From: a virus
Taxonomy: Duplodnaviria > Heunggongvirae > Uroviricota > Caudoviricetes
Virus record (IMG/VR): IMGVR_UViG_3300031992_000025
Location: 33,932 to 97,931 of that record
Direction: 5' to 3' (one strand)
DNA: 64,000 bases
The position numbers were made by a program, and so were the translations under genes. Below are positions 11,983-33,789 of this stretch, piece after piece (the first letter of the stretch is position 1; each line of letters opens with the position of its first letter). Below the pieces are notes generated by a model. It saw only the letters and a program-made list of their open reading frames with translations, was not told the origin of the DNA and ran no database searches.

Positions 11983-11986
11983 AAAT

Positions 11987-12060: not shown

Positions 12061-12065
12061 AATAT

Positions 12066-12154: not shown

Positions 12155-12158
12155 GAAT

Positions 12159-12246: not shown

Positions 12247-12291
12247 TAAAAACTGTTTACAACTCAGTATAAATGTTGTATAATATAAAAT

Positions 12292-12366: not shown

Positions 12367-12477
12367 AATTAATTTAATATTAGTACCTACTTGCTTAATG
12401 CTAGCAACAAGCAGACAAAAAAGAATGCCAGGTGAAACCGCTTTTACAGGTTTAGGTTGGGAGTAGCCACTTATTAT

Positions 12478-12552
12478 GGGTCATTAGCTCAATGGTAGAG
12501 CGGCCGGCTGTTAACCGGTTGACGACTGTTCGATTTCAGTCATGGCCCGCCA
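12478..12552 (+). tRNA. tRNA-Asn(GTT)
   Basis: anticodon stem GCCGG/CCGGT loop CTGTTAA. Confidence 0.75.
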
Positions 12553-12556
12553 TACA

Positions 12557-12660
12557 TGCGGTTGTTCGAAATTGGTATACGGTAATAGTTAAGCTATTAC
12601 AAGGCACTGGCAAGCATGCTGAAGTCATGTGTTTAGAGGTTCAAGTCCTCTCATCCGCAA
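12557..12660 (+). ncRNA. atypical long tRNA-like element (about 104 nt)
   Basis: T-arm AGAGG-TTCAAGT-CCTCT, acceptor-like GCGGTTG/CATCCGC, extra hairpin GTAATAG-TTAAG-CTATTAC. Confidence 0.3.
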
Positions 12661-12665
12661 CAAAT

Positions 12666-12760
12666 ATGCCCTTGGTCGTCTAATATGGTTAAGACGCGGC
12701 GTTATAAAGATAGAAGTGTACAGCTATCAAGTTGAGATGTGGTTACAATCCACTAAGGGG
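12666..12760 (+). ncRNA. atypical long tRNA-like element (about 95 nt)
   Basis: closing helix GCCCTT/AAGGGGC, T-arm GTGG-TTACAAT-CCAC, no clean anticodon arm. Confidence 0.3.
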
Positions 12761-12770
12761 CAGCTAAAAT

Positions 12771-12845
12771 GGATCGCTCGTATATCAGCTAGTATACTTG
12801 GCTGTCTACCATGGGAGGAGGGTTCGATTCCCTCGCGGTCCGCCA
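12771..12845 (+). tRNA. tRNA-Asp(GTC)
   Basis: anticodon loop CTGTCTA (one stem mismatch), acceptor GGATCGC/GCGGTCC. Confidence 0.55.
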
Positions 12846-12847
12846 AA

Positions 12848-12931
12848 AGAGCCTATACTTATTTCTTAATGGTTTTTGAAGGTTCGATTCCTTCATTACC
12901 CGCTTTGGGTGATGATATTAGTTAGGCCAAA
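12848..12931 (+). repeat. bipartite bulged-helix motif copy 4 enclosing a permuted tRNA minihelix
   Basis: AGAGCCTATACTTATTTCT + T-arm GAAGG-TTCGATT-CCTTC + acceptor 3' ATTACCC-G + CTTT + complementary 5' strand GGGTGAT + AGTTAGGCCAA. Confidence 0.65.
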
Positions 12932-12982
12932 GTTTATTTAGAAAGGAGAAAGCTTATGTAATTGTTAAAGGAGGACATAACG

Positions 12983-13234
12983 ATGAGTTATAGTCGAAAA
13001 CAATTTGATAAGCAAAAGCTAAAAAAGCTTGCAAAAAATAGCTGTAATGGCTGGAAAGGTGGCGCATATTATAGTCGCTATTTAGGCCATTATGTTCGTT
13101 GGTGGAAAAGTAAAGGTAGGAATAGTAGATATGCTTACTATAAAAAATTCTATCGCAAACGAATGAGAAGATTTGCAAACAAAAATGGTTGGTATTCTAA
13201 AAAAGAGTTCGATTTAATTTGGACTTGTTGGTAA
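12983..13234 (+). CDS. small basic Arg/Lys/Tyr/Trp-rich protein
   Basis: RBS AAAGGAGGACATAACG-ATG; 83 aa, highly basic. Confidence 0.4.
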   Translation: MSYSRKQFDKQKLKKLAKNSCNGWKGGAYYSRYLGHYVRWWKSKGRNSRYAYYKKFYRKRMRRFANKNGWYSKKEFDLIWTCW

Positions 13235-13239
13235 AATTA

Positions 13240-13253
13240 TTGTATAATATAAT
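13240..13253 (+). promoter_or_regulatory. extended -10 promoter TTGTATAATATAAT
   Basis: drives ncRNA candidate plus tRNA-Met cluster. Confidence 0.55.
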
Positions 13254-13254
13254 A

Positions 13255-13537
13255 GAGCTTACTTAACTGTTGGCTTAGAAGCAGCCATCATATAATGAGT
13301 GACCAACAGAACGTAAGGTGGTGCATCACTGAAATGAAGCGTCCCTAAATTACTGGATGAGAAATGGGACGTAAAACTGTCGGGAGTCAATAAAAATCTA
13401 TAATTTGGTAAGGGTGGTCAGAGTACCATTCTTAACTAAGAGCGTGCTGTAGGCACAGTAAATGCAGTATAATCAATGTTATAGAGTGCCCTAAGAGTCT
13501 TTGGCGTAGTAGCACATAAGTAAGTTCTTTATAACAT
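13255..13537 (+). ncRNA. candidate structured ncRNA (about 280 nt) transcribed from TTGTATAATATAAT promoter
   Basis: ORF-free, GC-richer than surroundings, directly upstream of tRNA-Met. Confidence 0.35.
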
Positions 13538-13613
13538 TGCGGGGTGCTAGCAGCGGTAGCTAACTGGGCTCATAACCCAGAGGTCGTAGGTTCGATTCCT
13601 ACCCCCGCGACCA
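13538..13613 (+). tRNA. tRNA-Met(CAT), initiator-like
   Basis: anticodon stem CTGGG/CCCAG (three G-C pairs next to loop) loop CTCATAA. Confidence 0.7.
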
Positions 13614-13617
13614 ATAT

Positions 13618-13732
13618 TGCATGATAGTCGAGTGGAAGAGACGACCGCATACATAAGCGGTGGACACAGCTGAAAGTAAATTCTAGATAGGAGTAAGCTA
13701 GAGCGGAGGTTCGATTCCTTCTCATGCGACCA
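13618..13732 (+). ncRNA. atypical 115-nt tRNA-like with 8-nt anticodon-type loop and about 45-nt extra arm
   Basis: acceptor TGCATGA/TCATGCG-A-CCA, T-arm GGAGG-TTCGATT-CCTTC, stem ACCGC/GCGGT with loop ATACATAA. Confidence 0.35.
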
Positions 13733-13734
13733 GA

Positions 13735-14010
13735 GGCAGGTTTTCATCGATTTTAGAGCCTCGCACATAAGAAAATCGATAGATAGACGGACTATGTACA
13801 AGATATGTCTAATCTAAAAAAGGAAAGGTTGTACACCAGAAATTTGGTCGGCTAGTTGGCGTAAACCTAGCAATAGGAGCGTTTGCAACAGACCCTCAAT
13901 AACTGCAGTGAGAGGGCAAGCACGAGCTTACAAGAAGAGACTGCGACGGATGAAATATTCCTAGAGCTCTTGAGCTGAGAGCACAAGGTTCACTGGGCAA
14001 AGAACAAAAC
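13735..14010 (+). ncRNA. candidate structured ncRNA (about 275 nt)
   Basis: ORF-free, 9-bp hairpin ATCGATTTT/AAAATCGAT with loop AGAGCCTCGCACATAAG. Confidence 0.3.
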
Positions 14011-14012
14011 AC

Positions 14013-14089
14013 GGACCGTTGGTGTAGTGGCCTTGCATGCTTCTCTGTCACGGAAGAGATCACGAGTTCGAATCTCGTACGGTCCGCCA
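14013..14089 (+). tRNA. tRNA-Asp(GTC)
   Basis: anticodon stem CTTCT/GGAAG loop CTGTCAC, acceptor GGACCGT/ACGGTCC. Confidence 0.75.
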
Positions 14090-14094
14090 TAGTT

Positions 14095-14202
14095 AGAGCC
14101 AATACTTATTTCTTAGCGAGGTAGCTCAGAGGTTAGAGCAGCAGATATTAATCTGAAGGTCGTAGGTTCAAGTCCTTCCCTTGCCAGGCCTAGTTTGGCC
14201 GA
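14095..14202 (+). repeat. bipartite bulged-helix motif copy 5 enclosing an anticodon-less tRNA-like unit
   Basis: AGAGCCAATACTTATTTCT ... GTTTGGCC (GCCAA/TTGGC covariation); insert 14115-14186 has acceptor, D-arm, T-arm and hairpin CAGAT-ATTA-ATCTG instead of anticodon loop. Confidence 0.65.
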
Positions 14203-14205
14203 TCT

Positions 14206-14282
14206 GGCTGGGTGGCCAAGCTGGTTAAGGCACAAAGCTCATACCTTTGGGATCGTCAGTTCAAATCTGACCCCAGCTACCA
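14206..14282 (+). tRNA. tRNA-Met/Ile2(CAT), elongator-type
   Basis: anticodon stem CAAAG/CTTTG loop CTCATAC. Confidence 0.7.
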
Positions 14283-14285
14283 TTT

Positions 14286-14363
14286 AGAGCTTATACTTAT
14301 TTCTTGAATGCTGTGGTTCGAATCCACCTTGCCTGTGGGGAGCGGAAAGTAGTTAAGCCAAAT
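14286..14363 (+). repeat. bipartite bulged-helix motif copy 6 enclosing tRNA 3'-fragment
   Basis: AGAGCTTATACTTATTTCT ... AGTTAAGCCAAAT (GCTTA/TAAGC covariation); insert has T-arm GTGG-TTCGAAT-CCAC. Confidence 0.65.
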
Positions 14364-14365
14364 AC

Positions 14366-14441
14366 GCACTCTTAACTCAACTGGGAGAGTGCTACCCTTA
14401 CAAGGTAGAAGTTGTAGGTCCGAGTCCTACAGAGTGCACCA
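14366..14441 (+). tRNA. tRNA-Val(TAC)
   Basis: anticodon stem CTACC/GGTAG loop CTTACAA. Confidence 0.8.
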
Positions 14442-14581
14442 TGGCATGTATGCAATTAGAAAACGCAACCTGCCGGTAAAGTAGGCGCTCCGAGTAGTCT
14501 CGAAGTAGGAGCTTTGTGGAATATTGCTAAATCGAGACTTTAGTAACAATATTCTAGGTGTAATTCCCACCATGCCAACCA
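14442..14581 (+). ncRNA. 140-nt tRNA-like RNA (acceptor TGGCATG/CATGCCA-A-CCA) with large internal insertion
   Basis: 7-bp terminal helix plus ACCA; T-loop-like GGTG-TAATTCC-CACC. Confidence 0.3.
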
Positions 14582-14585
14582 ATTT

Positions 14586-14660
14586 GCAGACGTAGGACAA
14601 TGGTTAGTCCATCGCCTTGCCAAGGCGAATATACGGGTTCGATTCCCGCCGTCTGCTCCA
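14586..14660 (+). tRNA. tRNA-Gly(GCC)
   Basis: anticodon stem TCGCC/GGCGA loop TTGCCAA. Confidence 0.7.
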
Positions 14661-14731
14661 CCAGGACAGATAAAGATTAGTTTCTTTATTAGGTTCTAAG
14701 GCTGGACAAATCGATAAAACCAGCCAGTTAT

Positions 14732-14806
14732 GCGGGTGTCGTCCAACGGTCAGGGCCTCTGCCTTCCAAGCAGAAGATACCGGTTCGATTCCGGCCACCC
14801 GCTCCA
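14732..14806 (+). tRNA. tRNA-Gly(TCC)
   Basis: anticodon stem TCTGC/GCAGA loop CTTCCAA. Confidence 0.75.
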
Positions 14807-14834
14807 TTAGCAGTATTTAAAAGGAGAAAAAACA

Positions 14835-14930
14835 ATGAAAACAATGAAACTCAGTCGTCTAAGTTGTCGAAGCTGTAAAGCTTGTTTTCGTTGTCTCAGT
14901 ATAAATACCGCGTTAGCTCAGCTGGATTAG
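14835..14930 (+). CDS. Cys-rich micro-ORF (31 aa, C-x2-C-x2-C-x2-C) reading into tRNA-Arg
   Basis: strong RBS AAAAGGAGAAAAAACA-ATG. Confidence 0.25.
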   Translation: MKTMKLSRLSCRSCKACFRCLSINTALAQLD

Positions 14931-14984
14931 AGCATTTGGCTACGAACCAAAAGGTCGAGGGTCCGAATCCTTCACGCGGTGCCA
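14907..14984 (+). tRNA. tRNA-Arg(ACG)
   Basis: anticodon stem TTTGG/CCAAA loop CTACGAA. Confidence 0.75.
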
Positions 14985-14985
14985 A

Positions 14986-15060
14986 GCTTTGGTAGCCAAG
15001 TGGTTAAGGCTTCGGTCTGCAACACCGACATCGTGGGTTCGAATCCCACCCAAAGCTCCA
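14986..15060 (+). tRNA. tRNA-Cys(GCA)
   Basis: anticodon stem TCGGT/ACCGA loop CTGCAAC. Confidence 0.8.
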
Positions 15061-15095
15061 AAATCTAGCTTTTTATGTTGTATAATATAATAGTT

Positions 15096-15173
15096 CCTCC
15101 CGTAGCTTAGTCAGGTTAAAGCGAACGCCTTATAAGCGTTAGATCGGTGGTTCAAATCCACCCAGGAGGACCA
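15096..15173 (+). tRNA. tRNA-Ile(TAT)
   Basis: anticodon stem AACGC/GCGTT loop CTTATAA; preceded by promoter TTGTATAATATAAT. Confidence 0.6.
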
Positions 15174-15248
15174 TCAAGCTAGTTATTTGCCTGTCAGAAG
15201 CCCTGTTAGAGGAAGCTGGGCTTATAATTAGCTTATTTTAATAAAGAG

Positions 15249-15845
15249 GTGCTTATGGAAATTAGATTTGTTGATGAAAGCAAAGAAGCCACTGGTAAAG
15301 TAAAAGAGGCACAAGAAGCATTAGATGAGCTCATTGATAAAAAGTCTGGTGAAGCTAAGGAAAATCCAGATTATTTAGCATTAATGGCAAAATATAAAAA
15401 AAGCTTAACTAATATTAATAAAGATGCTTGCGGCAGTCCTTGGGAATGGAGTTGGGGCTTAGACTATTTTGTTGAATTTCTTCGTTTTATGCAAGAATAT
15501 TATAAATTAGGCATTAATGTTTGGGCAATGGAGAGACGAGATGAAGATCCTAAAAAATATAAAAATTATCCAACTAGATATGAGAGTATTTCTAAAGCTC
15601 TTAGCTACTATGATAAGTGGCAAAATTTAGAAGAAGAATATATTACAGTAATTGATCACCCAGAGACACGAAAAACACATGAAAATGATGATGGAACAAT
15701 TACTGTTGATGATCTTGGCTTTCATTGTGAATATAAATTTGGTTCTGCTAAGAAAACATATAGAAAACTTCATAAGGATCAAAAGAAATATAAAAAGTTA
15801 TTTTTTAAAACTGTAATGAACTATTTAGAAGAATGGTGGGATTAA
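15249..15845 (+). CDS. hypothetical protein
   Basis: RBS AAAGAGGTGCTT-ATG. Confidence 0.5.
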   Translation: MLMEIRFVDESKEATGKVKEAQEALDELIDKKSGEAKENPDYLALMAKYKKSLTNINKDACGSPWEWSWGLDYFVEFLRFMQEYYKLGINVWAMERRDEDPKKYKNYPTRYESISKALSYYDKWQNLEEEYITVIDHPETRKTHENDDGTITVDDLGFHCEYKFGSAKKTYRKLHKDQKKYKKLFFKTVMNYLEEWWD

Positions 15846-15883
15846 TTAAGTCTCATTGAAAATCTCACTGAAGAAAACTTGCT

Positions 15884-15971
15884 GGAGGCATGGAGTAATG
15901 GTATCTCATCACCCTGCTAAGGTGACCATCGGGCAACTGATGTCCGCGTTCGAGTCGCGGTGCCTCCGCCA
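15884..15971 (+). tRNA. tRNA-Ser(GCT)
   Basis: anticodon stem TCACC/GGTGA loop CTGCTAA, long variable arm. Confidence 0.8.
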
Positions 15972-15973
15972 TA

Positions 15974-16306
15974 TTGAAAGGAAATTTTATGAAAGCATAT
16001 TTTATAGCAACTGCAAATGATTGTAAAAAAGATGAGCTTGGTTGGTTAGACTGGGGTAAATCTTTACGTGTTGTTGGTTTCTTTGAAGACATGGAAACTG
16101 CAAAAAAAGCAGTAGAAGAAAATTGGGGAGATATATATGAAGATGGTTATTATAAATATGCTATTATAGAAGAAAGAGAAGATGGTCTATATTCTCATTG
16201 TGAAAGCCCATTATTCTATAAGTGGGAAGGCACAATAAAAGATGGTGGCTATAAACAAATAGAAAGGCCAGAAGCTACAAAAGGCTTTTGTAATTTCACA
16301 ATCTAG
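15974..16306 (+). CDS. hypothetical protein
   Basis: RBS GAAAGGAAATTTT-ATG. Confidence 0.5.
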   Translation: MKGNFMKAYFIATANDCKKDELGWLDWGKSLRVVGFFEDMETAKKAVEENWGDIYEDGYYKYAIIEEREDGLYSHCESPLFYKWEGTIKDGGYKQIERPEATKGFCNFTI

Positions 16307-16308
16307 TT

Positions 16309-16392
16309 GCCCAGATGGTGGAATGGTAGACACCCGTGGCTTAGAACCACGTGCCGAAAGGCGTGCAGGTTCAAATCCTGTTCTGGGCACCA
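16309..16392 (+). tRNA. tRNA-Leu(TAG)
   Basis: anticodon stem CGTGG/CCACG loop CTTAGAA, long variable arm. Confidence 0.8.
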
Positions 16393-16399
16393 TTATTCT

Positions 16400-16485
16400 G
16401 CGCGAGTGATGAAATGGTAGACATGTGAGTCTAAGAAGCTCATGCCAGCAATGGTGTGTGGGTTCAAGTCCCACCTTGCGCACCA
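16400..16485 (+). tRNA. tRNA-Leu(AAG), type II, A34
   Basis: anticodon stem TGAGT/GCTCA loop CTAAGAA, long variable arm; anticodon assignment tentative. Confidence 0.5.
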
Positions 16486-20327: not shown

Positions 20328-20477
20328 TCGTATAATATAATGTAACTGCCACACATTGCCGCCGTGGTCGGAAAAGAGAATTGATCATCTCTAAGTACTG
20401 GATAAGGGCGGGTCTAGCCAAACGGTGCACAAAATTCTGGAAATACAAAAGGCGATCCATAAAGCAACAGTTACAAT

Positions 20478-20503
20478 AAAAGAGCTTAAATAAGCTCTTT
20501 TTT
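20478..20503 (+). terminator. rho-independent terminator
   Basis: AAAAGAGCTTAAATAAGCTCTTTTTT. Confidence 0.6.
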
Positions 20504-20534
20504 AATTGTATAATATAAATGAGGTTTATTTTAT

Positions 20535-20807
20535 ATGAAAAAGAAAGACATTATTGATTTAATTACAGCTCATTATGAAGATGACCCAAGATTGTTTTTC
20601 CATAAAACTATTGAGGTTTTAAAGGAATTTCAAGAAAATGGTGATGATGCCTTAATTCAACATTTAGACTTCATTCTTAAGAGTAAAGTTAAAATTGCCC
20701 CTAAGAGAGAGGTTAGAAAATTAGAAGATTTGCACGAAGAAATTTCTTTCGACGAAGCCAAGAAGCTTGGTTGGATATTTGTTCCACAGGAGAGTAATAA
20801 TGAGTAA
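20535..20807 (+). CDS. hypothetical protein
   Basis: RBS AATGAGGTTTATTTTAT-ATG after promoter. Confidence 0.45.
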   Translation: MKKKDIIDLITAHYEDDPRLFFHKTIEVLKEFQENGDDALIQHLDFILKSKVKIAPKREVRKLEDLHEEISFDEAKKLGWIFVPQESNNE

Positions 20808-21105
20808 AAATTATTCACCAGAAATTATTAAAAGATTTCTTGAAGATGATAAGCCAAGTATTTTTGTTTTAAAAGATGATAGTGTTTATATCGGGATATT
20901 AAGGCCTGGATATGGTCGTGGGCATGTTCATTGTGTAGCACCTACTATCAATGATGGCGGCATGGGTTTTCCAAGAAGTTATATTAAACAAATTATTTTA
21001 TTTAATGGTTTAATTTACCCCAAAGAAGAAAATGGTCCGCACAAAATATTAAATATTTTAGAGCTAAATGAATTAGTAAATAAAGCCGGCTATGAGTTTA
21101 TTTAA
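20800..21105 (+). CDS. hypothetical protein
   Basis: ATG overlapping previous gene end. Confidence 0.45.
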   Translation: MSKNYSPEIIKRFLEDDKPSIFVLKDDSVYIGILRPGYGRGHVHCVAPTINDGGMGFPRSYIKQIILFNGLIYPKEENGPHKILNILELNELVNKAGYEFI

Positions 21106-21179
21106 AAATTTTTAAAATTTCTCAAAAAATATTCGCTAAAATAATACACAGCAAAAAAATTAAAAATTTGCTGTATAAT

Positions 21180-24130
21180 ATATAGTTAGTTACAGAGTAA
21201 TCTGTTTCTATAAGAGCTTAAAAAGCACCTGCACTATTAGGAACTCCCGAAAAGCCGAAAGTGAGGCTGTCGAAAGGCTAAGCGACTATAAATAAAATTT
21301 ACGTTAACATTAAGACCCGAAGAGTACTCACATCGACGGGCACTGCCGAAAGGCACTTAAAGGTGGGTTGGGGTTAAAGTTGTCTACCAATGTGAGAAAA
21401 ACAACTGCTTCCTTGGCTAATTTAGTCCGGTAGGAAGTTAATATAGTTTAGGTGGCCCAGGAGGTATTTAATTTCCCTCTCCCCAGAAAACTTGAGGTCA
21501 CCAGCCTATAATCAGGTATAGCTATGGCGCCTGGAATACTATCATTCTCGATAGTATAGTTTAAGAGGCTGCGTAATGCCGCCAACCCGTTGAGGTTATC
21601 TCTGGCGGGTTATGTAGAGCCGGAGTATTTACCGACTGGACCTGAGCAAATTGTCCACCTACTTAATTAAACTGCTCATTTTTCTTAAAAATCGATCGCA
21701 CTTCAGGGCACTTCCGCCTGTCCTAAGCATGACGTTAAACTGCAAATAATTTTTAGGAGGCGCTTATGAAGTATTACGTATTAGATGGCGAAATTAATAC
21801 TCGCCCTATTAAGGAAAAAATGTTCCGTTCAAGAGCTGCCGCTGAAAAAGCATTAGAAGTTATTCTCTATAGAGAGGACCTTCAAGTTCAAGACGACAGA
21901 TTTCCTTCAAAGCACACCGAAGAATTCGTGTGTGACAGATGCTCTAGATTCTTCATTCGTAGAATTGTCTACGGTGAGTAGAGCCTAGGTCAAGACACAA
22001 ACTAATTGGCCCAGTAATGGGAAAATGGAAAATCCGAAATCGTGGATTATACAGAGACTAGCGATCAAAGTTAGTTAGAAAGTCTTGATTTCTTAGTTAG
22101 TTACACGTTCGCGTGTTTCTATAAAACTTCCTGAAAATCTTTGGATAAAAACCAAAGCGAATGACTGCACAAGTTGTATTGAGTGCTTTCACGAGAAAAG
22201 GTACACTGGGATGCATGGGAAGTAAAATGTGATGCACCAGTAATTGTCGGTGGCGATATAAAACCGTTCAGCAGAGATACAACTCTTGACTGATAAAGGC
22301 CTTGTTGATGGGTGAGGTTAGTTACCTCTTCAGGTAGAAATGAATCAACTAATCTGCTCTCTTGCCGACTATTTTGGGTTAGACAGGCAAGTATAACAAA
22401 AGTTATAGTCTTAGCCCATGAGTTTATTAATTACATAGTAATATGTGATTATATATGAACGGCGCTTGCTTAGGCCTTAACAACTTAAGCTGGTGAGCAT
22501 TCAAGACAACTACGTTAAGTGAGTATTCTGAGGCATAATGAAATCTCACATATTCAGCGCTGATTGCCGACAAGTCATATGACTGGACATGAGCTTGTCC
22601 TTGAAAAGGCACAACGGGGTTTGGTGAGATGTCCACAACCAGTTATTAAAATCACTTGGGCAAAAATAAGCATAAGCCCATTAACAACGAGGGCACGTTG
22701 TAAAATAACGAGTTTAGCCGAGTCTTATAGACGGTATGGAGTCTGATATAAACCCATGCAACCCACATTCTTTATAGGAGGTATGGAACGCTAGAATAAA
22801 TACTTTGGGATCTAGCAATCTGGCCGACCTAATGGGTAGTTCAAGGTGTAACTCCTTGATTGGTCTCAAAAAGCCCACGTAGCAGTAACCAGGGCTAATA
22901 CTAAGACGTCAAAACGTGAAAGAGCCTGCTACACTGACATAGGATTCATTCCGAGTTGTGACCGCTTGAAAGCTGGCGGGAATGCACTGTGATGCACGTC
23001 AAAAATTCTCACAGACCTGCACAAGGCTAAGTGCTAAAAAATGTCCAGGCTTTTAGAAGGAAAACTATAAACCTCCAGGTGGCTCCTGGGTAAACTGTAA
23101 GAAACAAGCTGCCTTTAAACAGTATAAAGATTAGGGGTGCAGAACTATCGCTGAAGTTAGCCTGTAGGCAAAGCGTCAATATGATGTGTCAAAGTTGGTT
23201 GGTAAGAGCCTAATTCCGTTAATCGCAAGGAATGACTGCAATAATATACTTTGGTTTGGAATGACACAGTAATGAACCTAAAAACCCAACATGACAGTGC
23301 ATTATTTAATCGGATTTTGTCACCATGTAAATAATAATGCTTCGGGAAAGTGAACGAACTAGGAGCCCCCTCGCGCATTAAGTTGTATGCCAACGGCTGA
23401 GCATTAGAAATAATGTGAGGTGCATATTATTGCCGAGCATAGAGGAGATTGCCGATACCTCGACCAGGATATGGAAAGCAAAGTAGGGATGTGGATGTTC
23501 ACCAAGAAACTCTTTTAGATAAAATCGTGATTGTGGGTTTGGAGTTTCAAAGGTAATTATGCCTAATTAAGTAGATTAAAGAGTTTGGTCTCTGGGACGG
23601 CCATAGTGCTTAATTGAAAATAATAAATAGTTCCACCACCCAGTACTGAATGTTGTTTGATTAATTGTGATTGCCGCTGGACATGACGAAGGAGAGACAG
23701 CAATTAATTAAGTAAGTGGACTATCTCAGCCTATTAAACGCTAGTTTAGTTTAAAGCTATTAATTAATAGGTAATTAACAGAACTTAGTATTCTGTATAA
23801 AGAGATTAAAGCCGGGGAACTCCAGGACAGGTTTTATGAGTATCTTGCTAAGAAGAGAAAATAATGTAAAAAGGCCTGAGTAAGTTTAATCACCTGCAAT
23901 TTGGGGTTGAGCCCAGTTAGAAAACGTTAGTCAAAGTTAACGCTCTAACAATGCTTATTAATTTATTTGCCTGAGGCTATCTCACGCAGATTAATAAGAA
24001 GAGCCCAAGAAAATAGGGACCGAAAGGAAAAATATCCAACTTTGAACTCTTTTATATAAGAATAGTCTTAGCTAGTGAGTAGAGGGCTAAGATGAGGCAA
24101 AGCATGCGTGTGATAAGCCATTAAACTCTA
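21180..24130 (+). ncRNA. roughly 3-kb ORF-free, GC-enriched block: candidate giant structured ncRNA(s)
   Basis: promoter TGCTGTATAATATAT at 21170; stops in all six frames throughout; GC clearly above the about 30% genome background; only one short ORF (21766-21981) with RBS; ends at terminator near 24160. Confidence 0.45.
21766..21981 (+). CDS. small ORF (71 aa) embedded in the noncoding block
   Basis: RBS AGGAGGCGCTT-ATG; CDRCSRFF motif. Confidence 0.3.
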   Translation: MKYYVLDGEINTRPIKEKMFRSRAAAEKALEVILYREDLQVQDDRFPSKHTEEFVCDRCSRFFIRRIVYGE

Positions 24131-24157
24131 TTTTTTTATTTACTAGTAAAAATTTTA

Positions 24158-24188
24158 AAGGCCTATTTATATAGGTCTTTTTATTTTA
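24158..24188 (+). terminator. rho-independent terminator
   Basis: AAAGGCCTATTTATATAGGTCTTTTTATTTT. Confidence 0.55.
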
Positions 24189-24209
24189 TTTATTGTATAA
24201 TATTATAAT

Positions 24210-24395
24210 ATGGTTTTCAATTATAGAGTTATTTGGACAGATATAAATAAAAATAGGCAGGATTTTGTAGATATGGATTCACAAAATATTGCACTTTTTA
24301 TAGCAAAACAAAAAGTGAGACAAGGTATGCAAAATGTTATTATTCAACTTACACTAGTTGGAGACTATGATAAGCAAGAGGAGATAGAAGTATAA
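24210..24395 (+). CDS. hypothetical protein
   Basis: follows promoter TTGTATAATATTATAAT. Confidence 0.4.
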   Translation: MVFNYRVIWTDINKNRQDFVDMDSQNIALFIAKQKVRQGMQNVIIQLTLVGDYDKQEEIEV

Positions 24396-24396
24396 T

Positions 24397-24708
24397 ATGA
24401 AATTTATTAAAAAACCAATTCCAATTGATGCAGTTAAATGCATTAAAGAAAATGAAGATGAAATTATTAGTCTTTTAGAGTCAGGAACTACAGAATGGGA
24501 AAAAGTATTAGATGATGATTATAATGTTATTGGATTTAATATTCATTCTTGGGAAGGTGTAGATCCAGTCTATTATGATTTTAGTAAAAATAAAAATAGT
24601 GGCGGAAAAGCTTACTGGGTTATTAAAGGGTTAAAAGGTGAGTGCTACCCTTGTGTAGCAGATGATGCTGAAGATGCTCCTCTTGGGTACGAGCTCTTTA
24701 AAGAATAA
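24397..24708 (+). CDS. hypothetical protein
   Basis: translationally coupled (TAATATG). Confidence 0.4.
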   Translation: MKFIKKPIPIDAVKCIKENEDEIISLLESGTTEWEKVLDDDYNVIGFNIHSWEGVDPVYYDFSKNKNSGGKAYWVIKGLKGECYPCVADDAEDAPLGYELFKE

Positions 24709-24822
24709 TTAAAAAAATATTTACAAAAAATAAAAAATATCGTATAATATTAATGTGAATGAAAAAACATTCGCTAAATTAAATAAGTGAATTGCAAACT
24801 AATATATAACAAAGCAATTCAC

Positions 24823-25072: not shown

Positions 25073-25150
25073 GGGGGCGCATGTTCTAAGGGCAAGCGAG
25101 ACTGCTTTGCAAGCAGACTGTTGTGGGTTCGATTCCCTTCGTTTCCACCA
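25073..25150 (+). tRNA. tRNA-Ala(TGC)-like
   Basis: acceptor GGGGGCG/CGTTTCC with G3-U70 wobble, anticodon loop TTTGCAA, enlarged D region. Confidence 0.5.
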
Positions 25151-25203
25151 ATATGTAATAATATTTGCAGCGCAAGTTGTGTCCCAAATATTTGCTAAAT
25201 TAA

Positions 25204-25217
25204 TTGTATAATATAAT
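25204..25217 (+). promoter_or_regulatory. extended -10 promoter TTGTATAATATAAT
   Basis: upstream of HNH endonuclease gene. Confidence 0.55.
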
Positions 25218-25229
25218 GAGGCATTTATT

Positions 25230-25835
25230 ATGAGAAAAACAATTGATGATATTAAAAAACAAATTTGGGAGAATTCATTGCATACCTGTGAATATTTAAG
25301 TGGTGAAGCAAAACCAGGTAAAAAAATTCATGTAAGATGCATAATTCATAATGAAGAGTTTGATGTAAGTTATGATACTATTCGTAAATCTACTAGAAAA
25401 CATCATATTTGTCCTAAATGTAAAGCTGAAGATGATGCAAAAGATAAGGTAAAACTTATTTGCGATTATTGTGGTAAAGAGTATTATGTTGCAAAAAGTA
25501 AGTCTACTAAATCAGATTATCATTTCTGTTGTAGAGCTTGTAAAGATTCTGCACAAAAGATTAATTCTGGAGAAAAATTTAATGAATTAAGACCAGATCA
25601 TTATGGAACTGGAACAACAACTTACAGAGATGCAGCATTTATAGCTTATCCACATAAATGTGCAATTTGTGGTTGGGCTGAGGATGAAGATGTGCTTGAA
25701 GTTCATCATATTGATGAAAATAGAGCAAATGCAAGTTTAGACAATTTAATTATATTATGTCCAACTTGTCATAGAAAATTATCTATTCATAAATATTATC
25801 TTACTGATGATAGAAAAAGCATTATTAAAAAATAA
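25230..25835 (+). CDS. HNH homing endonuclease with Cys-rich zinc-binding N-terminal region
   Basis: EVHHIDENRANASLDNLIILCPTCH (HNH motif); multiple CxxC pairs. Confidence 0.65.
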   Translation: MRKTIDDIKKQIWENSLHTCEYLSGEAKPGKKIHVRCIIHNEEFDVSYDTIRKSTRKHHICPKCKAEDDAKDKVKLICDYCGKEYYVAKSKSTKSDYHFCCRACKDSAQKINSGEKFNELRPDHYGTGTTTYRDAAFIAYPHKCAICGWAEDEDVLEVHHIDENRANASLDNLIILCPTCHRKLSIHKYYLTDDRKSIIKK

Positions 25836-25846
25836 TGTAAATTTAT

Positions 25847-25923
25847 GGGCTATTAGTTCAGTCTAGGAGAACGCCCGCCCTGCAAGCGGGAGGTCATCGG
25901 AGCGGAGCCGATATGGTCCACCA
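25847..25923 (+). tRNA. tRNA-Ala(TGC)-like with atypical T-loop
   Basis: acceptor GGGCTAT/ATGGTCC incl. G3-U70, anticodon stem CCCGC/GCGGG loop CCTGCAA, T-loop AGCGGAG. Confidence 0.4.
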
Positions 25924-25927
25924 AATT

Positions 25928-26001
25928 GCCCCTGTAGTACAATGGTAGTACAGTTGACTTGTAATCATCCGATGGCCGTTCGATTCGACCCTGGGGCACC
26001 A
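25928..26001 (+). tRNA. tRNA-Thr(TGT)
   Basis: acceptor GCCCCTG/CTGGGGC, anticodon loop CTTGTAA. Confidence 0.7.
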
Positions 26002-26005
26002 AAAT

Positions 26006-26081
26006 GGGGCTGTAGCTCAATTGGGAGAGCGCCGCGTTAGCATCGCGGAGGTTGCGGGATCGTTCCCCGTTAGTTCCACCA
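26006..26081 (+). tRNA. tRNA-Ala(AGC), A34
   Basis: anticodon stem CCGCG/CGCGG loop TTAGCAT; acceptor GGGGCTG/TAGTTCC with G3-U70. Confidence 0.5.
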
Positions 26082-26166
26082 ATTCATGCCATGGAAGGAA
26101 AACCATATAAACCCTTACAGCTTCGTTAATATCAGACGTAGGTATTAAAGAGTTAAGCTGAATTAT

Positions 26167-26243
26167 CCGGAGTTAGTTCAGCTTGGTAGAACACCTGATT
26201 TGGGATCAGGGGGTCGTGGGTTCGAATCCCGCATTCCGGACCA
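26167..26243 (+). tRNA. tRNA-Pro(TGG)
   Basis: anticodon stem CCTGA/TCAGG loop TTTGGGA, acceptor CCGGAGT/ATTCCGG. Confidence 0.75.
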
Positions 26244-26247
26244 TTAT

Positions 26248-26370
26248 AGAACCTGTGCTTATTTCTAATAGGGCAAGCAGGTTGTCGCTGGTTCGAATCC
26301 AGCCTTCTCCACCATTAATTGGGGAAGTAGCTCAGTTGGTAGAGCACCCGCAAAATATTAGCCAGGTCAT
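26248..26370 (+). repeat. bipartite bulged-helix motif copy 8 enclosing permuted tRNA halves (3' half, linker, 5' half)
   Basis: AGAACCTGTGCTTATTTCT + T-arm GCTGG-TTCGAAT-CCAGC + CTTCTCC-A-CCA (ends 26314) + TTAATT + GGGGAAG-TA-GCTC-AGTTGGTA-GAGC-A-CCCGC (26321-26351) + partner GCCAGGT (26361-26367); acceptor strands GGGGAAG/CTTCTCC fully complementary (G3-U70). Confidence 0.65.
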
Positions 26371-26373
26371 ATT

Positions 26374-26449
26374 GCACCTTTAGCTCAGTTGGGAGAGCAT
26401 ATCCTTGACGTGGATAGGGTCGTAGGTTCGAGCCCTGCAAGGTGCACCA
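26374..26449 (+). tRNA. tRNA-Val(GAC)
   Basis: anticodon stem TATCC/GGATA loop TTGACGT. Confidence 0.75.
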
Positions 26450-26453
26450 TTAT

Positions 26454-26531
26454 GCTCCTCTAGCCCAACTGGCAGAGGCGGTAAGCTCAAACCTTACTTA
26501 TGTCTCGGTTCGAATCCGAGGGGGAGTACCA
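26454..26531 (+). tRNA. tRNA with anticodon CAA but short (type I) variable arm
   Basis: anticodon stem GTAAG/CTTAC loop CTCAAAC; acceptor GCTCCTC/GGGGAGT with G-U pairs. Confidence 0.45.
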
Positions 26532-26576
26532 AAAATGCAAAATTTGCAAAAATGTTATACTAAAGGAGAAAAAGTT

Positions 26577-26657
26577 ATGATGCAAATGAACAGAAAAAAT
26601 ATCAAGAGCAGAAAAACCAAAAGATTTGGTTCATTTAGTCATGGCTTAATTCATTAA
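26577..26657 (+). CDS. micro-ORF (26 aa, basic)
   Basis: RBS AAAGGAGAAAAAGTT-ATG; followed by terminator. Confidence 0.25.
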   Translation: MMQMNRKNIKSRKTKRFGSFSHGLIH

Positions 26658-26690
26658 GATTATAAAGGACGTTAGTTAACGTAATATAAT

Positions 26691-26720
26691 GCCGAGTGGT
26701 TAAGCCGCCCGGCATTTTTT
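26691..26720 (+). terminator. rho-independent terminator
   Basis: GCCGAGTGG-TTAAG-CCGCCCGGC-ATTTTTT. Confidence 0.55.
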
Positions 26721-26863
26721 CTAGGATTACGTTAGCGCGACGGACAAGAATTACTTATGCGAATTCCTTCTTAGAAAAAAATCTCCTTGTCTTCTAATTG
26801 AATAAGATATAGACCTCCTAAGTCTATGATCAGAGTTTAAATCTCTGCAAGGAGTCCATATAT

Positions 26864-26938
26864 ACCGCCATAGTACAACGGATAGTACAGTAGCCTTCTA
26901 AGCTTCTGATCCGGGTTCGATTCCTGGTGGCGGTGCCA
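26864..26938 (+). tRNA. tRNA-Arg(TCT)
   Basis: anticodon loop CTTCTAA, acceptor ACCGCCA/TGGCGGT. Confidence 0.7.
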
Positions 26939-26940
26939 TT

Positions 26941-27010
26941 AGAGCCTATGCTTATTTCTAGCTCAACGAGAGCGTCAAACATTTAATTTGAAGGTATAGC
27001 TAGGCCAAAA
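26941..27010 (+). repeat. bipartite bulged-helix motif copy 9
   Basis: AGAGCCTATGCTTATTTCT ... TAGCTAGGCCAAAA (AC to GC paired by GT to GC change). Confidence 0.65.
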
Positions 27011-27014
27011 TTAT

Positions 27015-27092
27015 GCACCGTCGGTCGCAAGGTGTGACACTCGACTTTTAATCGAGGTATCAGGATGGGTTCGATTCCCTCACGGTGCACCA
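27015..27092 (+). tRNA. tRNA-Lys(TTT)
   Basis: anticodon stem CTCGA/TCGAG loop CTTTTAA. Confidence 0.75.
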
Positions 27093-27096
27093 ATAT

Positions 27097-27171
27097 GCAC
27101 CCTTAGCCAAGCGGTATGGCCTACGACTTTTAATCGTATTATCAGGTGTTCGACTCACCTAGGGTGTACCA
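27097..27171 (+). tRNA. tRNA-Lys(TTT), second copy
   Basis: anticodon stem TACGA/TCGTA loop CTTTTAA. Confidence 0.75.
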
Positions 27172-27174
27172 GTA

Positions 27175-27252
27175 TGCTCCGTTGGCGCAATTAGGTAGCG
27201 CAAGATACTCTTAATATCTGGGTTACAGGTTCGATTCCTGTACGGAGCACCA
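27175..27252 (+). tRNA. tRNA-Lys(CTT)
   Basis: anticodon stem AGATA/TATCT loop CTCTTAA. Confidence 0.8.
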
Positions 27253-27310
27253 ATAAAATATTTTGCATTTGACTTAAAATTATTTGCTAAATTAATTGAG
27301 GTTCAAAATT

Positions 27311-28123
27311 ATGGCAAATTATATAAGTCACACTGCTTGAAATAAAGGCTTAACCAAAGAAACCGATAGTCGTTTAGCAAAAACAGCTTTATTACAAAGT
27401 AAAGTTAAAAAAGGTAAACCAAATCATCCACAAACTGCTGAAACAAGAGCAAAAATATCAGCTGCTAGAAAAAAATACATAGCAGAGCATCCAGATCAAG
27501 TTCCATTTAAAATGCACCATTCATCTAAAGAAAGTTTTCCAGAAAGATATTTTAGACTTTGACTTAAAAAAGAAAAATTATTAGAAGCACAAGAACTACA
27601 GATTGATAGATATACATTAGATTTTGCTTGGCCAGATAAAAAGATTTATTTAGAAATTGATGGAAATCAGCATAAGTTAGATTGAATGCAAGAGCATGAT
27701 AAAATTAGAACTGATTATTTAAATACTTTAGGTTGAACATGTATTGGTAGAATAGATTGATCTTGATATAAAGCTTTGTGCACAAAAGAAAAGCATAAAT
27801 ATTTACAAAACATAAAAGCAGCAATTGAGCAAGCTAGTTTTATAGAAAAATTTATATCAAAAAAAGACTTAGCTTTACAAAAACGTCAAAAGCTTATTGA
27901 AGCTGGATTTGTTATGAAAGATGGCAGAACAGCTCCATGAATGTTATCTAATAATGAATGGCAAAGACGTTTACAGCTAATACTAGATAGTAATATAGAC
28001 TTAACAAAATTTGGCTGGAAAGAACAAGTACAAAAAATAACGAATTTAACTCGTAGCCAATTAAACGATACAATAGAGCATTTTCCAGAACATTTTACAA
28101 AAATCTATATTAGAGGCAAATAA
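27311..28123 (+). CDS. homing endonuclease-like protein: NUMOD3-type DNA-binding motifs plus DUF559/Vsr-like PD-(D/E)XK nuclease domain (about 10 in-frame TGA)
   Basis: HTAWNKGLTKETDSRLAKTA and KPNHPQTAETRAKISAARKK (NUMOD3-like); DFAWPDKKIYLEIDGNQH...LGWTCIGRIDW; TGA codons fall at conserved Trp-like positions (GW motif). Confidence 0.65.
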
Positions 28124-28205
28124 ATTATTGTATAATATATTGTGGTTGAGATATGAGTTTTGGTAGTTTTGTGCCACGCATGCGGAAATAAAAACTACTA
28201 TATAT

Positions 28206-28281
28206 GCCGACTTAGCTCAGCTGTTAGAGCAATTCACTAGTAATGAATAGGTCGGGGGTTAGAATCCCTCAGTCGGCACCA
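28206..28281 (+). tRNA. tRNA-Thr(AGT), A34
   Basis: anticodon stem ATTCA/TGAAT loop CTAGTAA, acceptor GCCGACT/AGTCGGC, T-loop TTAGAAT. Confidence 0.6.
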
Positions 28282-29042: not shown

Positions 29043-29852
29043 TTGCTAAATTATATGATTATGAAGAATTTAGTTAAAACTGATTTTGATAAGACATATG
29101 ATGAATTAAGCAACTTATCTTTTATTATAAATGAAAAAGAAGATAGCTCAATAGACATTTTAGATGATATTACCTTAGAACAGTTTGGTCAGCCATATGA
29201 AAAATCAAGTATTCAATCCCTTAAAATAAAAAATACTTGTGGAATTTATTTAATTTTTAGAAAAGCAGAAGATGGTAGACTTCATAAATATATTGGGCAA
29301 GCAACTTCTCTACGTGACCGTTTATTGAAGCATCTTTCTAGGGCTGCATATATTATGGAGCATCCTAAGACAGATGAAAACAAAAATTTAGGCATTTATA
29401 AAGATTCGCCAGCTTTACATAGTGCTTTAATTAGACACAATTTTAAGGGGTTTTTCTTTGTTATATTAAAAATTTGTAAGCAAGAACAACTAAATGCATT
29501 AGAACAATTTGCTATTGCACAGTATGGCACTTTTGAAAATAAGTGAGATTATAATTTAACCCCTGGTGGCCAAGAAGGTGTAATTACTCATACAACTGCT
29601 GTTGAGCAATGAATTATAGAATATAAAAAAAGCACCAAAGGGCATGCTGCAGAAGTTAGATGAATTAATTGTAAAAATGTTTATCCAAGTGAAGCTGCTG
29701 CTTCTATTGCTGTTTGTGGTGAAAATAAGCATCAGCAAATAGCAAATGCATTAGCAACACCTGATGGTGAATTTTGACAAAATAAATCTGGTAAGAATAA
29801 ACAATGAGCTGGCTATGGTTGGAGACTACTAGACGAAGTTGCTAGCGAGTAG
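29043..29852 (+). CDS. GIY-YIG homing endonuclease (TGA-recoded C-terminal half)
   Basis: CGIYLIF...KYIGQATSLRDR (GIY-YIG), catalytic E in ALEQFAIAQYG; frame continues through about 6 TGA to TAG at 29850. Confidence 0.7.
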
Positions 29853-32850: not shown

Positions 32851-32864
32851 TTGTATAATATAAT
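32851..32864 (+). promoter_or_regulatory. extended -10 promoter TTGTATAATATAAT
   Basis: after terminator, upstream of Thg1-like gene. Confidence 0.55.
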
Positions 32865-32877
32865 GAGGTATTTTAAT

Positions 32878-33789
32878 ATGATTAGAGATGCATTAGGCGA
32901 TAGAATGAAAACTTATTATGAGGAAGTTACTAAGACTAGACTTACTCGTAGAACTCCAGTTGTTATTAGGCTAGATGGCTGTCATTTTCATACATTTACG
33001 AGAGGATTTAAAAAGCCATTCGATGAAGTTTTAGTTAAGTCTATGCAAGCAACCATGAAATATCTTTGTGAAAATATTCAAGGTTGTGTTTTAGGTTATA
33101 CTCAGTCTGATGAAATTACTCTTGTTTTAGTTGATTATAAAGAATTGAATACAAGCGCTTGGTTTGATTATGAAGTTCAAAAGATGGTTTCAGTTTCAGC
33201 CGCTCTTGCAACTTATGCTTTTAATAAATATTTTAATGAGTACTATTTAGAAAGTATTGCAGAAAAAGGCGAAGTTGATAAATATGATTTAGCTCATGAT
33301 ACCGCAAGAAGAAAAGGTGCATATTTTGATAGTAGAGTATTCAATATTCCAAAAGAAGAAGTTACTAATTGTGTTCTTTGGAGACAACTTGATGCAGAGA
33401 GAAATTCAATTAATTCATTAGCTCAATCTTTATTTAGCCACAAATCACTTCAAGGTTTAAATCTTAAAGATACGAAAGCTAAAATTGAAACTGAAGCTGG
33501 AATTATTTGGGGAAATTTACCAACAACTCAAAAACGTGGATGTTGCTGTATTAAAAACTATTATTTCTTAGACAAAGAAGGCAATAGATATGAAACAGCT
33601 AATATCTGTACATCAGAAGAAGATGGTACACATTATGTTGATGCCGGATTTAATGAAGAAAAGAATGTCTATGAACTTTATCCTATTGAAGTTACTCTTC
33701 ATAGTGAGTGGGTAGTAGATGAAGATATACCACAATTTAAAGATAGTGGTAGGAATTATATTGAAAACTTAGTTTTTGTTGGTGAATAA
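32878..33789 (+). CDS. Thg1-like protein (tRNA-His guanylyltransferase family 3'-5' nucleotidyltransferase)
   Basis: TPVVIRLDGCHFHTFTRGFKKPFDEVLVKSMQATMKYLCENIQGCVLGYTQSDEITLVL matches Thg1/TLP N-terminal catalytic core (RLDG.NFH.F....KP.D, GQSDE). Confidence 0.75.
   Translation: MIRDALGDRMKTYYEEVTKTRLTRRTPVVIRLDGCHFHTFTRGFKKPFDEVLVKSMQATMKYLCENIQGCVLGYTQSDEITLVLVDYKELNTSAWFDYEVQKMVSVSAALATYAFNKYFNEYYLESIAEKGEVDKYDLAHDTARRKGAYFDSRVFNIPKEEVTNCVLWRQLDAERNSINSLAQSLFSHKSLQGLNLKDTKAKIETEAGIIWGNLPTTQKRGCCCIKNYYFLDKEGNRYETANICTSEEDGTHYVDAGFNEEKNVYELYPIEVTLHSEWVVDEDIPQFKDSGRNYIENLVFVGE

Follow-up and report, generated by a model that had tools for sequence, protein, structure and literature searches.

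A candidate island of non-coding RNA gene cassettes between the tRNA arrays of a metagenomic tailed phage

The region considered here is a block of roughly 3 kilobases (kb) in a tailed-phage sequence from IMG/VR (Caudoviricetes; record IMGVR_UViG_3300031992_000025, positions 33,932 to 97,931); this whole 64,000-nucleotide (nt) stretch is referred to as the window, and its numbering is used throughout. An earlier note on this DNA had described the block as poor in open reading frames (ORFs) with stop codons in all frames, TGA included, as richer in GC than its flanks, as running from a consensus promoter to a terminator between two islands of transfer RNA (tRNA) genes, and as containing a single ORF of 71 amino acids (aa) at 21766-21981. 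All of these features proved to be there. ORFs of 80 aa or more are absent from both strands between 21106 and 24396, which leaves a gap of 3291 nt, longer than any other in the window, the second longest (2626 nt) being the second tRNA island itself. Reassigning TGA, TAG or TAA singly does not open a gene-sized frame in the block, where the longest open stretches after recoding, 112-171 codons, are dispersed across frames and strands. GC content reaches 0.39-0.445 at 21200-23600, as against 0.26-0.33 in the flanks (20400-21200 and 24000-24800). On the + strand, to which all block features described below belong, an exact copy of the promoter consensus TATAATATATAG occupies 21174-21185, with its -10 hexamer at 21174-21179, and is preceded by a 15-nt inverted repeat (21141-21155/21167-21181). 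At the other end, an intrinsic terminator at 24157-24190 consists of a 10-base-pair stem with a 4-nt loop (24157-24180) and a T-run; the hairpin is the sole + strand terminator-like site within the block, and the next promoter, TTGTATAAT, follows directly at 24194-24201. The TATAATATATAG motif is itself biased to the + strand, with 54 matches at up to two mismatches in the window where 29 are expected, a number that none of 100 shuffles equalled; the consensus recurs exactly at 9529 and 16506, and with one mismatch immediately ahead of the first tRNA. ARAGORN finds 38 tRNAs in the window, 26 of them at 10158-16485 and 12 at 25073-28281, which places the block between the two islands with about 4.6 kb of protein-coding genes intervening on the side of the first.

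We consider it likely that we are dealing with an "RNA gene island" in which five or more non-coding RNA (ncRNA) genes (modules A, E, F, H and JKL, with others less well sampled) and the gene for the 71-aa protein follow one another head to tail on the strand that also carries the tRNA islands. Set beside some 70 related loci from phages and metagenomes, the block resolves into modules of approximately 100-550 nt with sharp boundaries, whose presence, absence and order vary independently. Among these related phages the modules are discrete, non-coding and shuffled, appearing in varying combinations and orders; JKL, H and E keep their + strand helices by means of compensatory substitutions; and these cassettes, like genuine ROOL RNAs, each sit behind a TATAATATATAG-type promoter of their own or are wedged directly between tRNA genes. 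Two loci (L005 and L006) illustrate the mosaic well, matching 21183-22433 at 99-99.8% identity and then diverging abruptly at 22433, beyond which L005 shares only patches of 80-90% identity with the window. In another (L011), module A is 97% identical to the copy in the window and is found downstream of the ORF, after E. Module F accompanies E in L017, L067 and L072 and occurs without it in L005, L046, L052, L055 and L059, while the first ~50 nt of module I precede H in L072 and L052, follow it in the window, and in L017 and L031 stand immediately ahead of JKL. A further contig, L004, which is 100% identical to the window, stops at 22387; the L005 and L006 break at 22433 falls at the third D1-like motif (see below), and the interval 22387-22433 is a population-level recombination point or an assembly breakpoint. 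Contigs identical or nearly identical to the window come from samples ENA ERZ27257202 and ERZ27257203 and JGI 3300024342, 3300035054 and 3300028887.

The best sampled of the modules is JKL, whose 288-nt core (23630-23917) is present in more than 34 loci of the module census. It begins with block J (23630-23657), followed by a variable hairpin, P2, and by block K (23710-23721), which forms helix P1 with J; P3, P4, GGTAATTAAC and P5 come next, and then block b3 (23808-23827), the P6 helices, of which the inner is nested within the outer and which enclose a conserved loop of 14 nt, AGUAAGUUUAAUCA, and hairpin P7 (23900-23917), where the core ends. The family consensus has, in order, J as GTTCCACCACCyrGTACTGA, K as AGTnAGTGGAC, GGTAATTAA, and b3 as AAAGCyGGGrAACTCCAG, with helices P1-P5; the window carries all of these blocks in exact consensus form at 23630-23827, with every helix paired. 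Its 3' part (23808-23917) is of the type-1 form, with nested P6 around AGUAAAUCUAAGAA, UGUAAAA and a P7 loop of GUUGWG, a domain common to 19 distinct members. Copies were retrieved by the block J pattern from 9 IMG/VR contigs (36-223 kb) and 47 metagenome loci, yielding 48 distinct copies, GC-rich ones included, on phage contigs of 36-273 kb; J and b3 occur together in 41 of them. The blocks are invariant and are separated by inserts of widely varying length. Some copies carry an alternative 3' domain: in L063 (6556-6781) a tRNA-Pro comes within ~40 nt of the end of the 5' domain, and the alternative form in L026, L033 and L041 includes a T-arm-like sequence (e.g., GGTTCTAATCC) reminiscent of the tRNAs embedded in GOLLD RNAs.

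Conservation of the JKL fold can be seen in its base-pair changes. RNAalifold predicts 36 pairs for 14 members, 13 of them with compensatory changes. When the stems were cut at fixed offsets from the invariant blocks and the pairs counted in the resulting gapless alignments (A7 and A8), 92.7% of cells in the 5' domain (P1, P2, P4 and P5; 29 sequences) were paired, compared with 25-44% in slid registers, and 16 of the 26 pairs had changed on both sides, for a covariation of 0.42 versus 0.12 in shuffled alignments (0/500 as high). The 3' domain (outer and inner P6 and P7; 19 sequences) gave 93.4% paired cells versus 18-52% when slid, compensatory changes at 8 of 16 pairs, and a covariation of 0.455 versus 0.21 (again 0/500). 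Positions 10-14 of J also pair with positions 5-9 of b3 (91% paired versus 15-70% slid), the 12-27 pair being found as CG, UG, UA and AU; this pairing is a pseudoknot because it crosses P1. On the complementary strand the numerous G-U pairs would turn into C-A, which identifies the + strand as the one transcribed. GC-rich members (L046, L059 and L062) keep the fold with a different sequence. Beyond the core, a further helix, P8, formed by GTTAGA...TCTAAC within 23918-24060, covaries with GCCAGA...TCTGGC in L016; the RNA probably extends past its core to the terminator and, given the position of the latter at 24157, the JKL transcript is probably about 550 nt long. Two other pairings were considered: a small hairpin within b3 (C5-G18 and neighbours) was set aside in favour of outer P6 and the J-b3 pseudoknot, since both of these covary, and an RNAalifold pairing of TAGGT (after P4) with ACCTG (b4) is unsupported in L046 and L059.

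The placement of JKL points to a discrete unit. Its homology always begins exactly at GTTCC, whatever precedes it: a full TATAATATATAG promoter in L007, L016, L027, L070 and L072, the 3' end of a tRNA-Arg 3 nt away in L023 and L034, and another module in the window, L011, L065, L005 and L014. In L034, where the tRNA-Arg, JKL and tRNA-Ala segment spans 12705-13191, it fills exactly the 330 nt between the two tRNAs. In the window, a degenerate promoter-like AATAATAAATAG at 23619-23630 ends on the first base of JKL. Most JKL loci contain neither the ORF nor any of the other modules. Outside phages, the J motif is absent from 185,579 bacterial and archaeal species (one genome each), and the four matches to b3 in this set are chance occurrences inside coding sequence.

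Modules H and E make a similar case. Module H (23053-23292, ~240 nt; 12 loci) has sharp ends, AGAAGGAAAAC...AAAACCCAAC, and in eight sequences 14 of its 43 predicted pairs show compensatory changes, compared with 0-2 in slid registers, with 96.5% of cells paired versus 30-41%. For module E (22550-22820, ~270 nt; 10 loci, 11 helices), which is preceded by ATATCGTATAATATAT in L017 and L072, the corresponding figures from six sequences are 16 of 63 pairs versus 0-1, and 96% versus 29-41%. The two thus appear well supported by covariation. Modules F and A are probable structured RNAs on the same kind of evidence. Five of 30 predicted pairs are compensatory in F (22821-22933, ~113 nt; 9 loci) among eight sequences that include the GC-rich L046 and L059, with stems such as CAAGG/CCTTG, TGAGG/CCTCA and CGCGG/CCGCG exchanging for one another. 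In A (21183-21437, ~255 nt; 8 loci), which contains several hairpins with GAAA tetraloops, RNAalifold predicts 57 pairs from five sequences, 20 of them compensatory. An exact 28-mer from module F had no match in IMG/VR. A 14-nt inverted repeat (22981-22994/23290-23303, 13/14 complementary) brackets H, its downstream arm being the start of the module I hairpin.

The 71-aa ORF is a real, conserved small-protein gene. Its module (21669-22093) comprises a 5' untranslated region (UTR) with an AGGAGG ribosome-binding site, the coding sequence at 21766-21981 and a structured 3' UTR, and it is present in 16 loci. The protein family consists of 32 clusters, all of ~70 aa and 55-86% identical, around an invariant core, RFPxxHTEEFVC, and substitutions in the coding sequence are distributed 87:73:182 over the three codon positions, with third positions dominating. 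The 3' UTR has a minimum free energy (MFE) z-score of -3.9, on the + strand only. An AlphaFold2 model of the protein (mean predicted confidence, pLDDT, 76) resembles small uncharacterised phage proteins in BFVD; sequence and fold searches of the PDB were negative, and the only Pfam match is a sub-threshold one to DUF7552. Contigs encoding the protein and its homologues supplied loci L004-L017. Every ORF-bearing locus with enough downstream sequence carries JKL 170-2000 nt downstream; the two are not obligatorily linked, because most JKL loci lack the ORF.

The remaining parts of the block are less widely shared. Module A opens at 21183 with an element that we call D1, TAGTTAGTTAC-[ACAGA-GTAA-TCTGT]-TTCTATAA followed by AGAGCTTAAAAAGCAC, which recurs at 22094-22124, ahead of module C, and in weaker form at 22424-22454. 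The D1 hairpin stems covary (ACAGA/TCTGT, GCGGG/CCCGC and ACACG/CGTGT) around GNRA or UUCG tetraloops, and a scan of IMG/VR for the motif returned one unrelated chance match (L003). Downstream of A lie the non-coding modules B (21438-21583; 5 loci), which is separate from A in L011 and L012 and contiguous with it in L067, and B' (21584-21668). The latter ends in an "anti-K" arm at 21650-21670 that is complementary to JKL block K, the inverted repeat (21650-21670/23704-23724) being 21 nt long, 19/21 complementary and 2 kb apart. Within a long precursor this arm might base-pair with block K; outside the window its occurrence is limited to the near-identical L005, L006 and L040. Module C, which extends to 22433, is shared with the same three loci only. 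Module D (22434-22549) has relatives in four loci, at 85% identity in L010 and partially in L013, L014 and L052, and module G (22934-23052) is a spacer or unique sequence with one partial relative, in L063. Module I (23293-23625; 9 loci) begins with the widely shared ~50-nt hairpin at 23293-23342, its remainder being common to L011, L039 and L065 only. Finally, modules M and N (23918-24156) are the probable 3' extension of JKL; M occurs in L005, L016, L040 and L072 and has an MFE z-score of -3.6, and N is unique to the window.

None of these RNAs corresponds to a catalogued family. At gathering thresholds, Rfam 15 finds only tRNAs in the window, and with permissive filters (E<=10) it returns nothing meaningful at 20900-24500: no GOLLD, ROOL, HEARO, raiA, intron, riboswitch or ribozyme. 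A search at E<=5 of 13 other JKL-bearing loci likewise produced only tRNAs and chance matches, and across the window and these loci the covariance models for GOLLD, HEARO, raiA and OLE identify no member. For ROOL (RF03087; gathering score 99.1 bits), the window has no match at either the gathering score or E<=10, although the same search served as its own positive control by detecting ROOL at 201 bits in both L010 and L016. ARAGORN and Rfam place no tRNA or transfer-messenger RNA (tmRNA) between 16485 and 25073. Possible readings of JKL as the conserved regions of ribonuclease P, as a hepatitis delta virus-like or hatchet ribozyme, or as a tRNA 3' end were dropped, the Rfam models being silent and the helix topology different. 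The source phage is known solely from metagenomes: blastn and tblastn searches of 50,697 GenBank phages found no relative of the block or of the neighbouring 998-aa protein, the 333-aa protein encoded upstream has no relatives in IMG/VR, and the 103-aa protein encoded downstream has one close relative (L001), which lacks the block directly upstream. Gene callers leave the corresponding regions empty in all relatives, and we found no published description or name for the module families. The proposal in the earlier note that the block might hold GOLLD, ROOL, HEARO, raiA or a group I or II intron is thus not borne out, while its other suggestion, a new RNA class, fares well, in that the block holds RNA classes missing from Rfam 15.

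How the modules might be expressed bears directly on how the block should be interpreted. Among relatives, a TATAAT(ATATAG)-type element is found immediately upstream of each of four RNAs: JKL, E, an A-like RNA and ROOL. The D1 repeats at 21183 and 22094, with the weaker one at 22424, occupy the position of a promoter region, and the L007 equivalent of the 22094 copy is the JKL promoter; our reading of D1 is a short hairpin, of leader or terminator type, with a -10-like TATAA attached. In this genome a primary transcript of ~3 kb, from the promoter at 21174 to the terminator at 24157, is plausible. We infer that such a transcript would be a polycistronic precursor of several RNAs and one small mRNA and not a single giant functional RNA.

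The opposite view of that transcript, in which the modules are domains of one functional RNA of ~3 kb, draws on the single strong promoter, the single terminator and the lack of any internal + strand terminator, on an order (ORF<D<E<F<H<I<JKL) that is mostly colinear among relatives, and on the two long-range complementarities described above (21650-21670/23704-23724 and 22981-22994/23290-23303). These complementarities, however, are conserved solely in near-identical contigs, a translated gene lies inside the stretch, and in other phages modules are solitary, reordered, placed behind their own promoters or set between tRNAs, most JKL loci being devoid of every other module and of the ORF. We therefore regard a single giant RNA as unlikely. 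Where the earlier note spoke of giant structured ncRNA, the overwhelmingly non-coding and structured character of the transcribed strand stands, but not a single colinear giant RNA, and alignment with relatives replaces the 3-kb evolutionary unit with independently inherited modules, one of them a translated small gene. The modules might instead be long structured UTRs, that is, cis-regulatory leaders or trailers of the 71-aa gene or of genes downstream of 24210. The conservation of both ORF UTRs alongside it in 16 loci, the unusual stability of the 3' UTR, the recurrence of JKL 170-2000 nt downstream wherever an ORF-bearing locus is long enough and the presence of c-di-GMP-I riboswitches in related loci all fit such a role. 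It is nevertheless very unlikely to be the right one, given that an ORF homologue is missing from the vicinity of most JKL, H, E and F copies, that JKL elsewhere has its own promoter or tRNA flanks, and that a terminator stands between the block and the next gene.

Sharp module ends and presence/absence polymorphism, together with the endonuclease genes nearby (25230-25835 and 29043-29546), could also be taken as signs of mobile-element remnants or cargo inserted in the tRNA region, whether miniature transposons, degenerate self-splicing introns or RNAs associated with homing endonucleases. Yet the module ends lack terminal inverted repeats and target duplications, no split host gene flanks them, Rfam at E<=10 finds no group I or II intron, HEARO or other mobile-element RNA, and the covariation points to selection on the RNA fold itself, all of which makes this origin very unlikely too. 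Scarcely credible, in our view, is the idea that the stretch consists of decayed protein genes or neutral junk DNA between the tRNA islands. Pfam and PHROG searches of all ORF fragments, run as a pseudogene test, were silent in every frame, although missing protein matches are weak evidence because many of the phage's proteins are orphans, and MFE z-scores near zero would suit neutral sequence. Decay does not account for compensatory base-pair changes and strand-specific G-U pairs, for a GC content above that of the coding flanks, or for modules that are 76-98% conserved across phages when the neighbouring protein gene is 72-87% identical at the DNA level.

Several considerations weigh against the reading of the block as an array of separate RNA genes. 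Within the window only the promoter at 21174 is strong and of full consensus, the other internal -10-like hexamers being weak, and the claim of separate genes consequently rests on relatives. The invariance of block J is true by construction, JKL having been retrieved by an exact J match; the conservation of K, b3, GGTAATTAA and, in type-1 members, b4 is independent evidence. The JKL stem registers were picked after inspection of the sequences, a bias that the slid-register control addresses and does not remove, and for A, E, F and H, structure prediction and the later counting of pairs used one and the same set of alignments. These alignments are small (6 sequences for E, 8 for H, 8 for F and 5 for A) and come from related phages, and homologues of B, C, D, G, I and N are too few for judgement. 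The thermodynamic signal is weak, most modules having MFE z-scores of -1.3 to +1.3 and JKL (23630-24156) one of -1.5, compared with -3.8 for the ROOL RNA from L010. It is covariation, together with the conservation of the modules, and not the predicted folding stability that carries the case for structured RNA. Transcription and processing into separate RNAs are likewise our reading of the DNA, and any functional assignment is speculative, drawn as it is entirely from the neighbourhood.

With these points in mind, a simple scheme for the proposed RNA gene island can be outlined. A host RNA polymerase of the sigma-70 type would start at 21174 and read ~3 kb to the terminator at 24157-24180. The resulting precursor might then be cut and trimmed into stable folded RNAs in the fashion of a tRNA array, while the ribosome-binding site of the small ORF would direct its translation. 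Cassettes may be shuffled between phages by recombination, with the conserved promoter and hairpin junctions as linkers, and the GC enrichment could reflect base-paired RNA against an AT-rich genomic background. As for what the mature RNAs do, we can only speculate that they act in trans during infection, alongside the phage tRNAs, tmRNA, Thg1-like enzyme and ROOL, in translation or in the protection and repair of tRNA against host defence, perhaps as stable scaffolds, assemblies or decoys.

The surroundings of the block contain other elements of RNA metabolism. Just downstream in the window are genes for a methyltransferase, a metallophosphoesterase and a Thg1-like enzyme that repairs tRNA 5' ends. 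The last of these genes (32851-33789; Pfam 109 bits) encodes a Thg1-like tRNA-His guanylyltransferase/3'-5' polymerase, although tRNA-His is missing from the 38 tRNAs of the window; Thg1-like genes also occur in L007 and L014. At 14114-14187, ARAGORN reports a "tRNA-???" with a two-nucleotide anticodon, tt, that scores 49 bits with the Rfam tRNA model and has either an unusual anticodon loop or been mis-called. An HNH endonuclease gene (25230-25835) lies within the second tRNA island, between tRNA-Ala and tRNA-Thr, and a weak GIY-YIG-like ORF (29043-29546) lies just past it; both are probably homing endonucleases. Among the relatives, L040, whose contig also bears the ORF, JKL and other modules, has a phage tmRNA (11717-12097; tag peptide DKTFNPAFIASNSFVGARA) within a tRNA array, and c-di-GMP-I riboswitch aptamers occur in L013 (3001-3079) and L017 (4836-4912) at 44 and 49 bits, above the gathering score. 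Suppressor-type tRNAs with the anticodons tta (L010 8701-8792), tca (a 99-nt "SeC"-like tRNA, L007 5652-5750, also in L008, L009, L034 and L040) and cta (L022 95-169) are found in relatives and not in the window, a sign that some members of the group may reassign or read through stop codons.

A broader proposal, which we offer tentatively and consider possible rather than probable, is that the ROOL/GOLLD type gains new classes in JKL, H and E, with A and F as probable additions, that these make up an exchangeable "RNA toolkit" island together with ROOL, tmRNA and tRNAs, and that the phage may rely on the joint action of the cassettes, whether as assemblies made of RNA only, as scaffolds or as decoys, when it takes over or protects the translation and tRNA system of its host. 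If so, the genomics of cassette substitution would provide a handle on the function of ROOL and GOLLD. Even short of this, should the modules be real stable RNAs, the set of phage ncRNA classes would be enlarged, such RNAs would prove to be organised as shuffled cassettes sharing promoter and hairpin junctions, and the co-occurrence or exclusion of ROOL, along with placement in tRNA arrays, would offer a comparative route to ROOL/GOLLD-type function. Large structured RNAs of this kind are rare in bacteria and phages, and those known, OLE, GOLLD, ROOL and raiA, are structurally surprising and include RNA-only nanocages. The present locus offers several uncatalogued, covariation-supported families at once, physically linked to ROOL, tRNA arrays, tmRNA and tRNA-repair enzymes. 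It also carries a caution for annotation, as about 5% of the 64-kb stretch consists of RNA genes that are invisible to protein-based and Rfam-based pipelines.

Among known systems, the closest precedent for the way in which these RNAs might be made is found in phage T4, whose "species 1" and "species 2" RNAs (rnaC and rnaD) are stable, ~120-140 nt long, of unknown function, co-transcribed with the T4 tRNA cluster and released by the tRNA-processing machinery. The processing model proposed here for the block RNAs follows them; T4, however, has two such RNAs, whereas the block has five or more families, with lengths reaching ~550 nt. With regard to source and type of evidence, the candidate structured RNAs of 29-151 nt described by Fremin et al. 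2023 (PMC10690425) are the nearest, having likewise been drawn from IMG/VR contigs on the basis of covariation in phage intergenic regions, and short fragments of A, E, F, H or JKL could be among them.

A further comparison is with ROOL and GOLLD, large phage and prophage RNAs of unknown function that often adjoin tRNA islands (PMC5737381, PMC12286853). JKL appears to belong in their company as a large ornate phage RNA, with a 288-nt core (in all up to ~550 nt), seven covarying helices plus a pseudoknot, a non-coding sequence, a phage location and tRNA neighbours. Because the tests for membership in ROOL and in GOLLD both fail, the window RNAs share the setting of these classes yet belong to neither. 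From start to terminator JKL spans ~550 nt, close to the ~580 nt of ROOL, but it is unmatched by the ROOL covariance model even at E<=10, its thermodynamic signal is weaker (z of -1.5 versus -3.8), and it was found in no reference bacterial genome, whereas ROOL occurs in several phyla. GOLLD has one well conserved and one variable half, sometimes with embedded or adjacent tRNAs (PMC12286853), and in this respect JKL, with its constant 5' domain and alternative 3' domains and with tRNAs adjoining it in L023, L034 and L063, is similar; it is much smaller, however, has no Rfam GOLLD match, and carries its conserved half at the 5' end and not, as in GOLLD, at the 3' end. The related phages bring the two kinds of RNA together directly. 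Genuine ROOL RNAs (201 bits each) lie inside the same RNA and tRNA island in L010 (4510-5109) and L016 (8006-8599), upstream of the ORF homologue in one locus and downstream of it in the other, and the L016 copy stands behind the same type of promoter. Both loci lack modules A, E, F and H, a hint that ROOL may replace them; with two cases this is a lead only. ROOL is thus one cassette of the same island, and the modules described here are new RNA families inside a known phenomenon, the ornate ncRNAs of phage tRNA regions, to which they add the arrangement of such RNAs, ROOL included, as an array of exchangeable cassettes.

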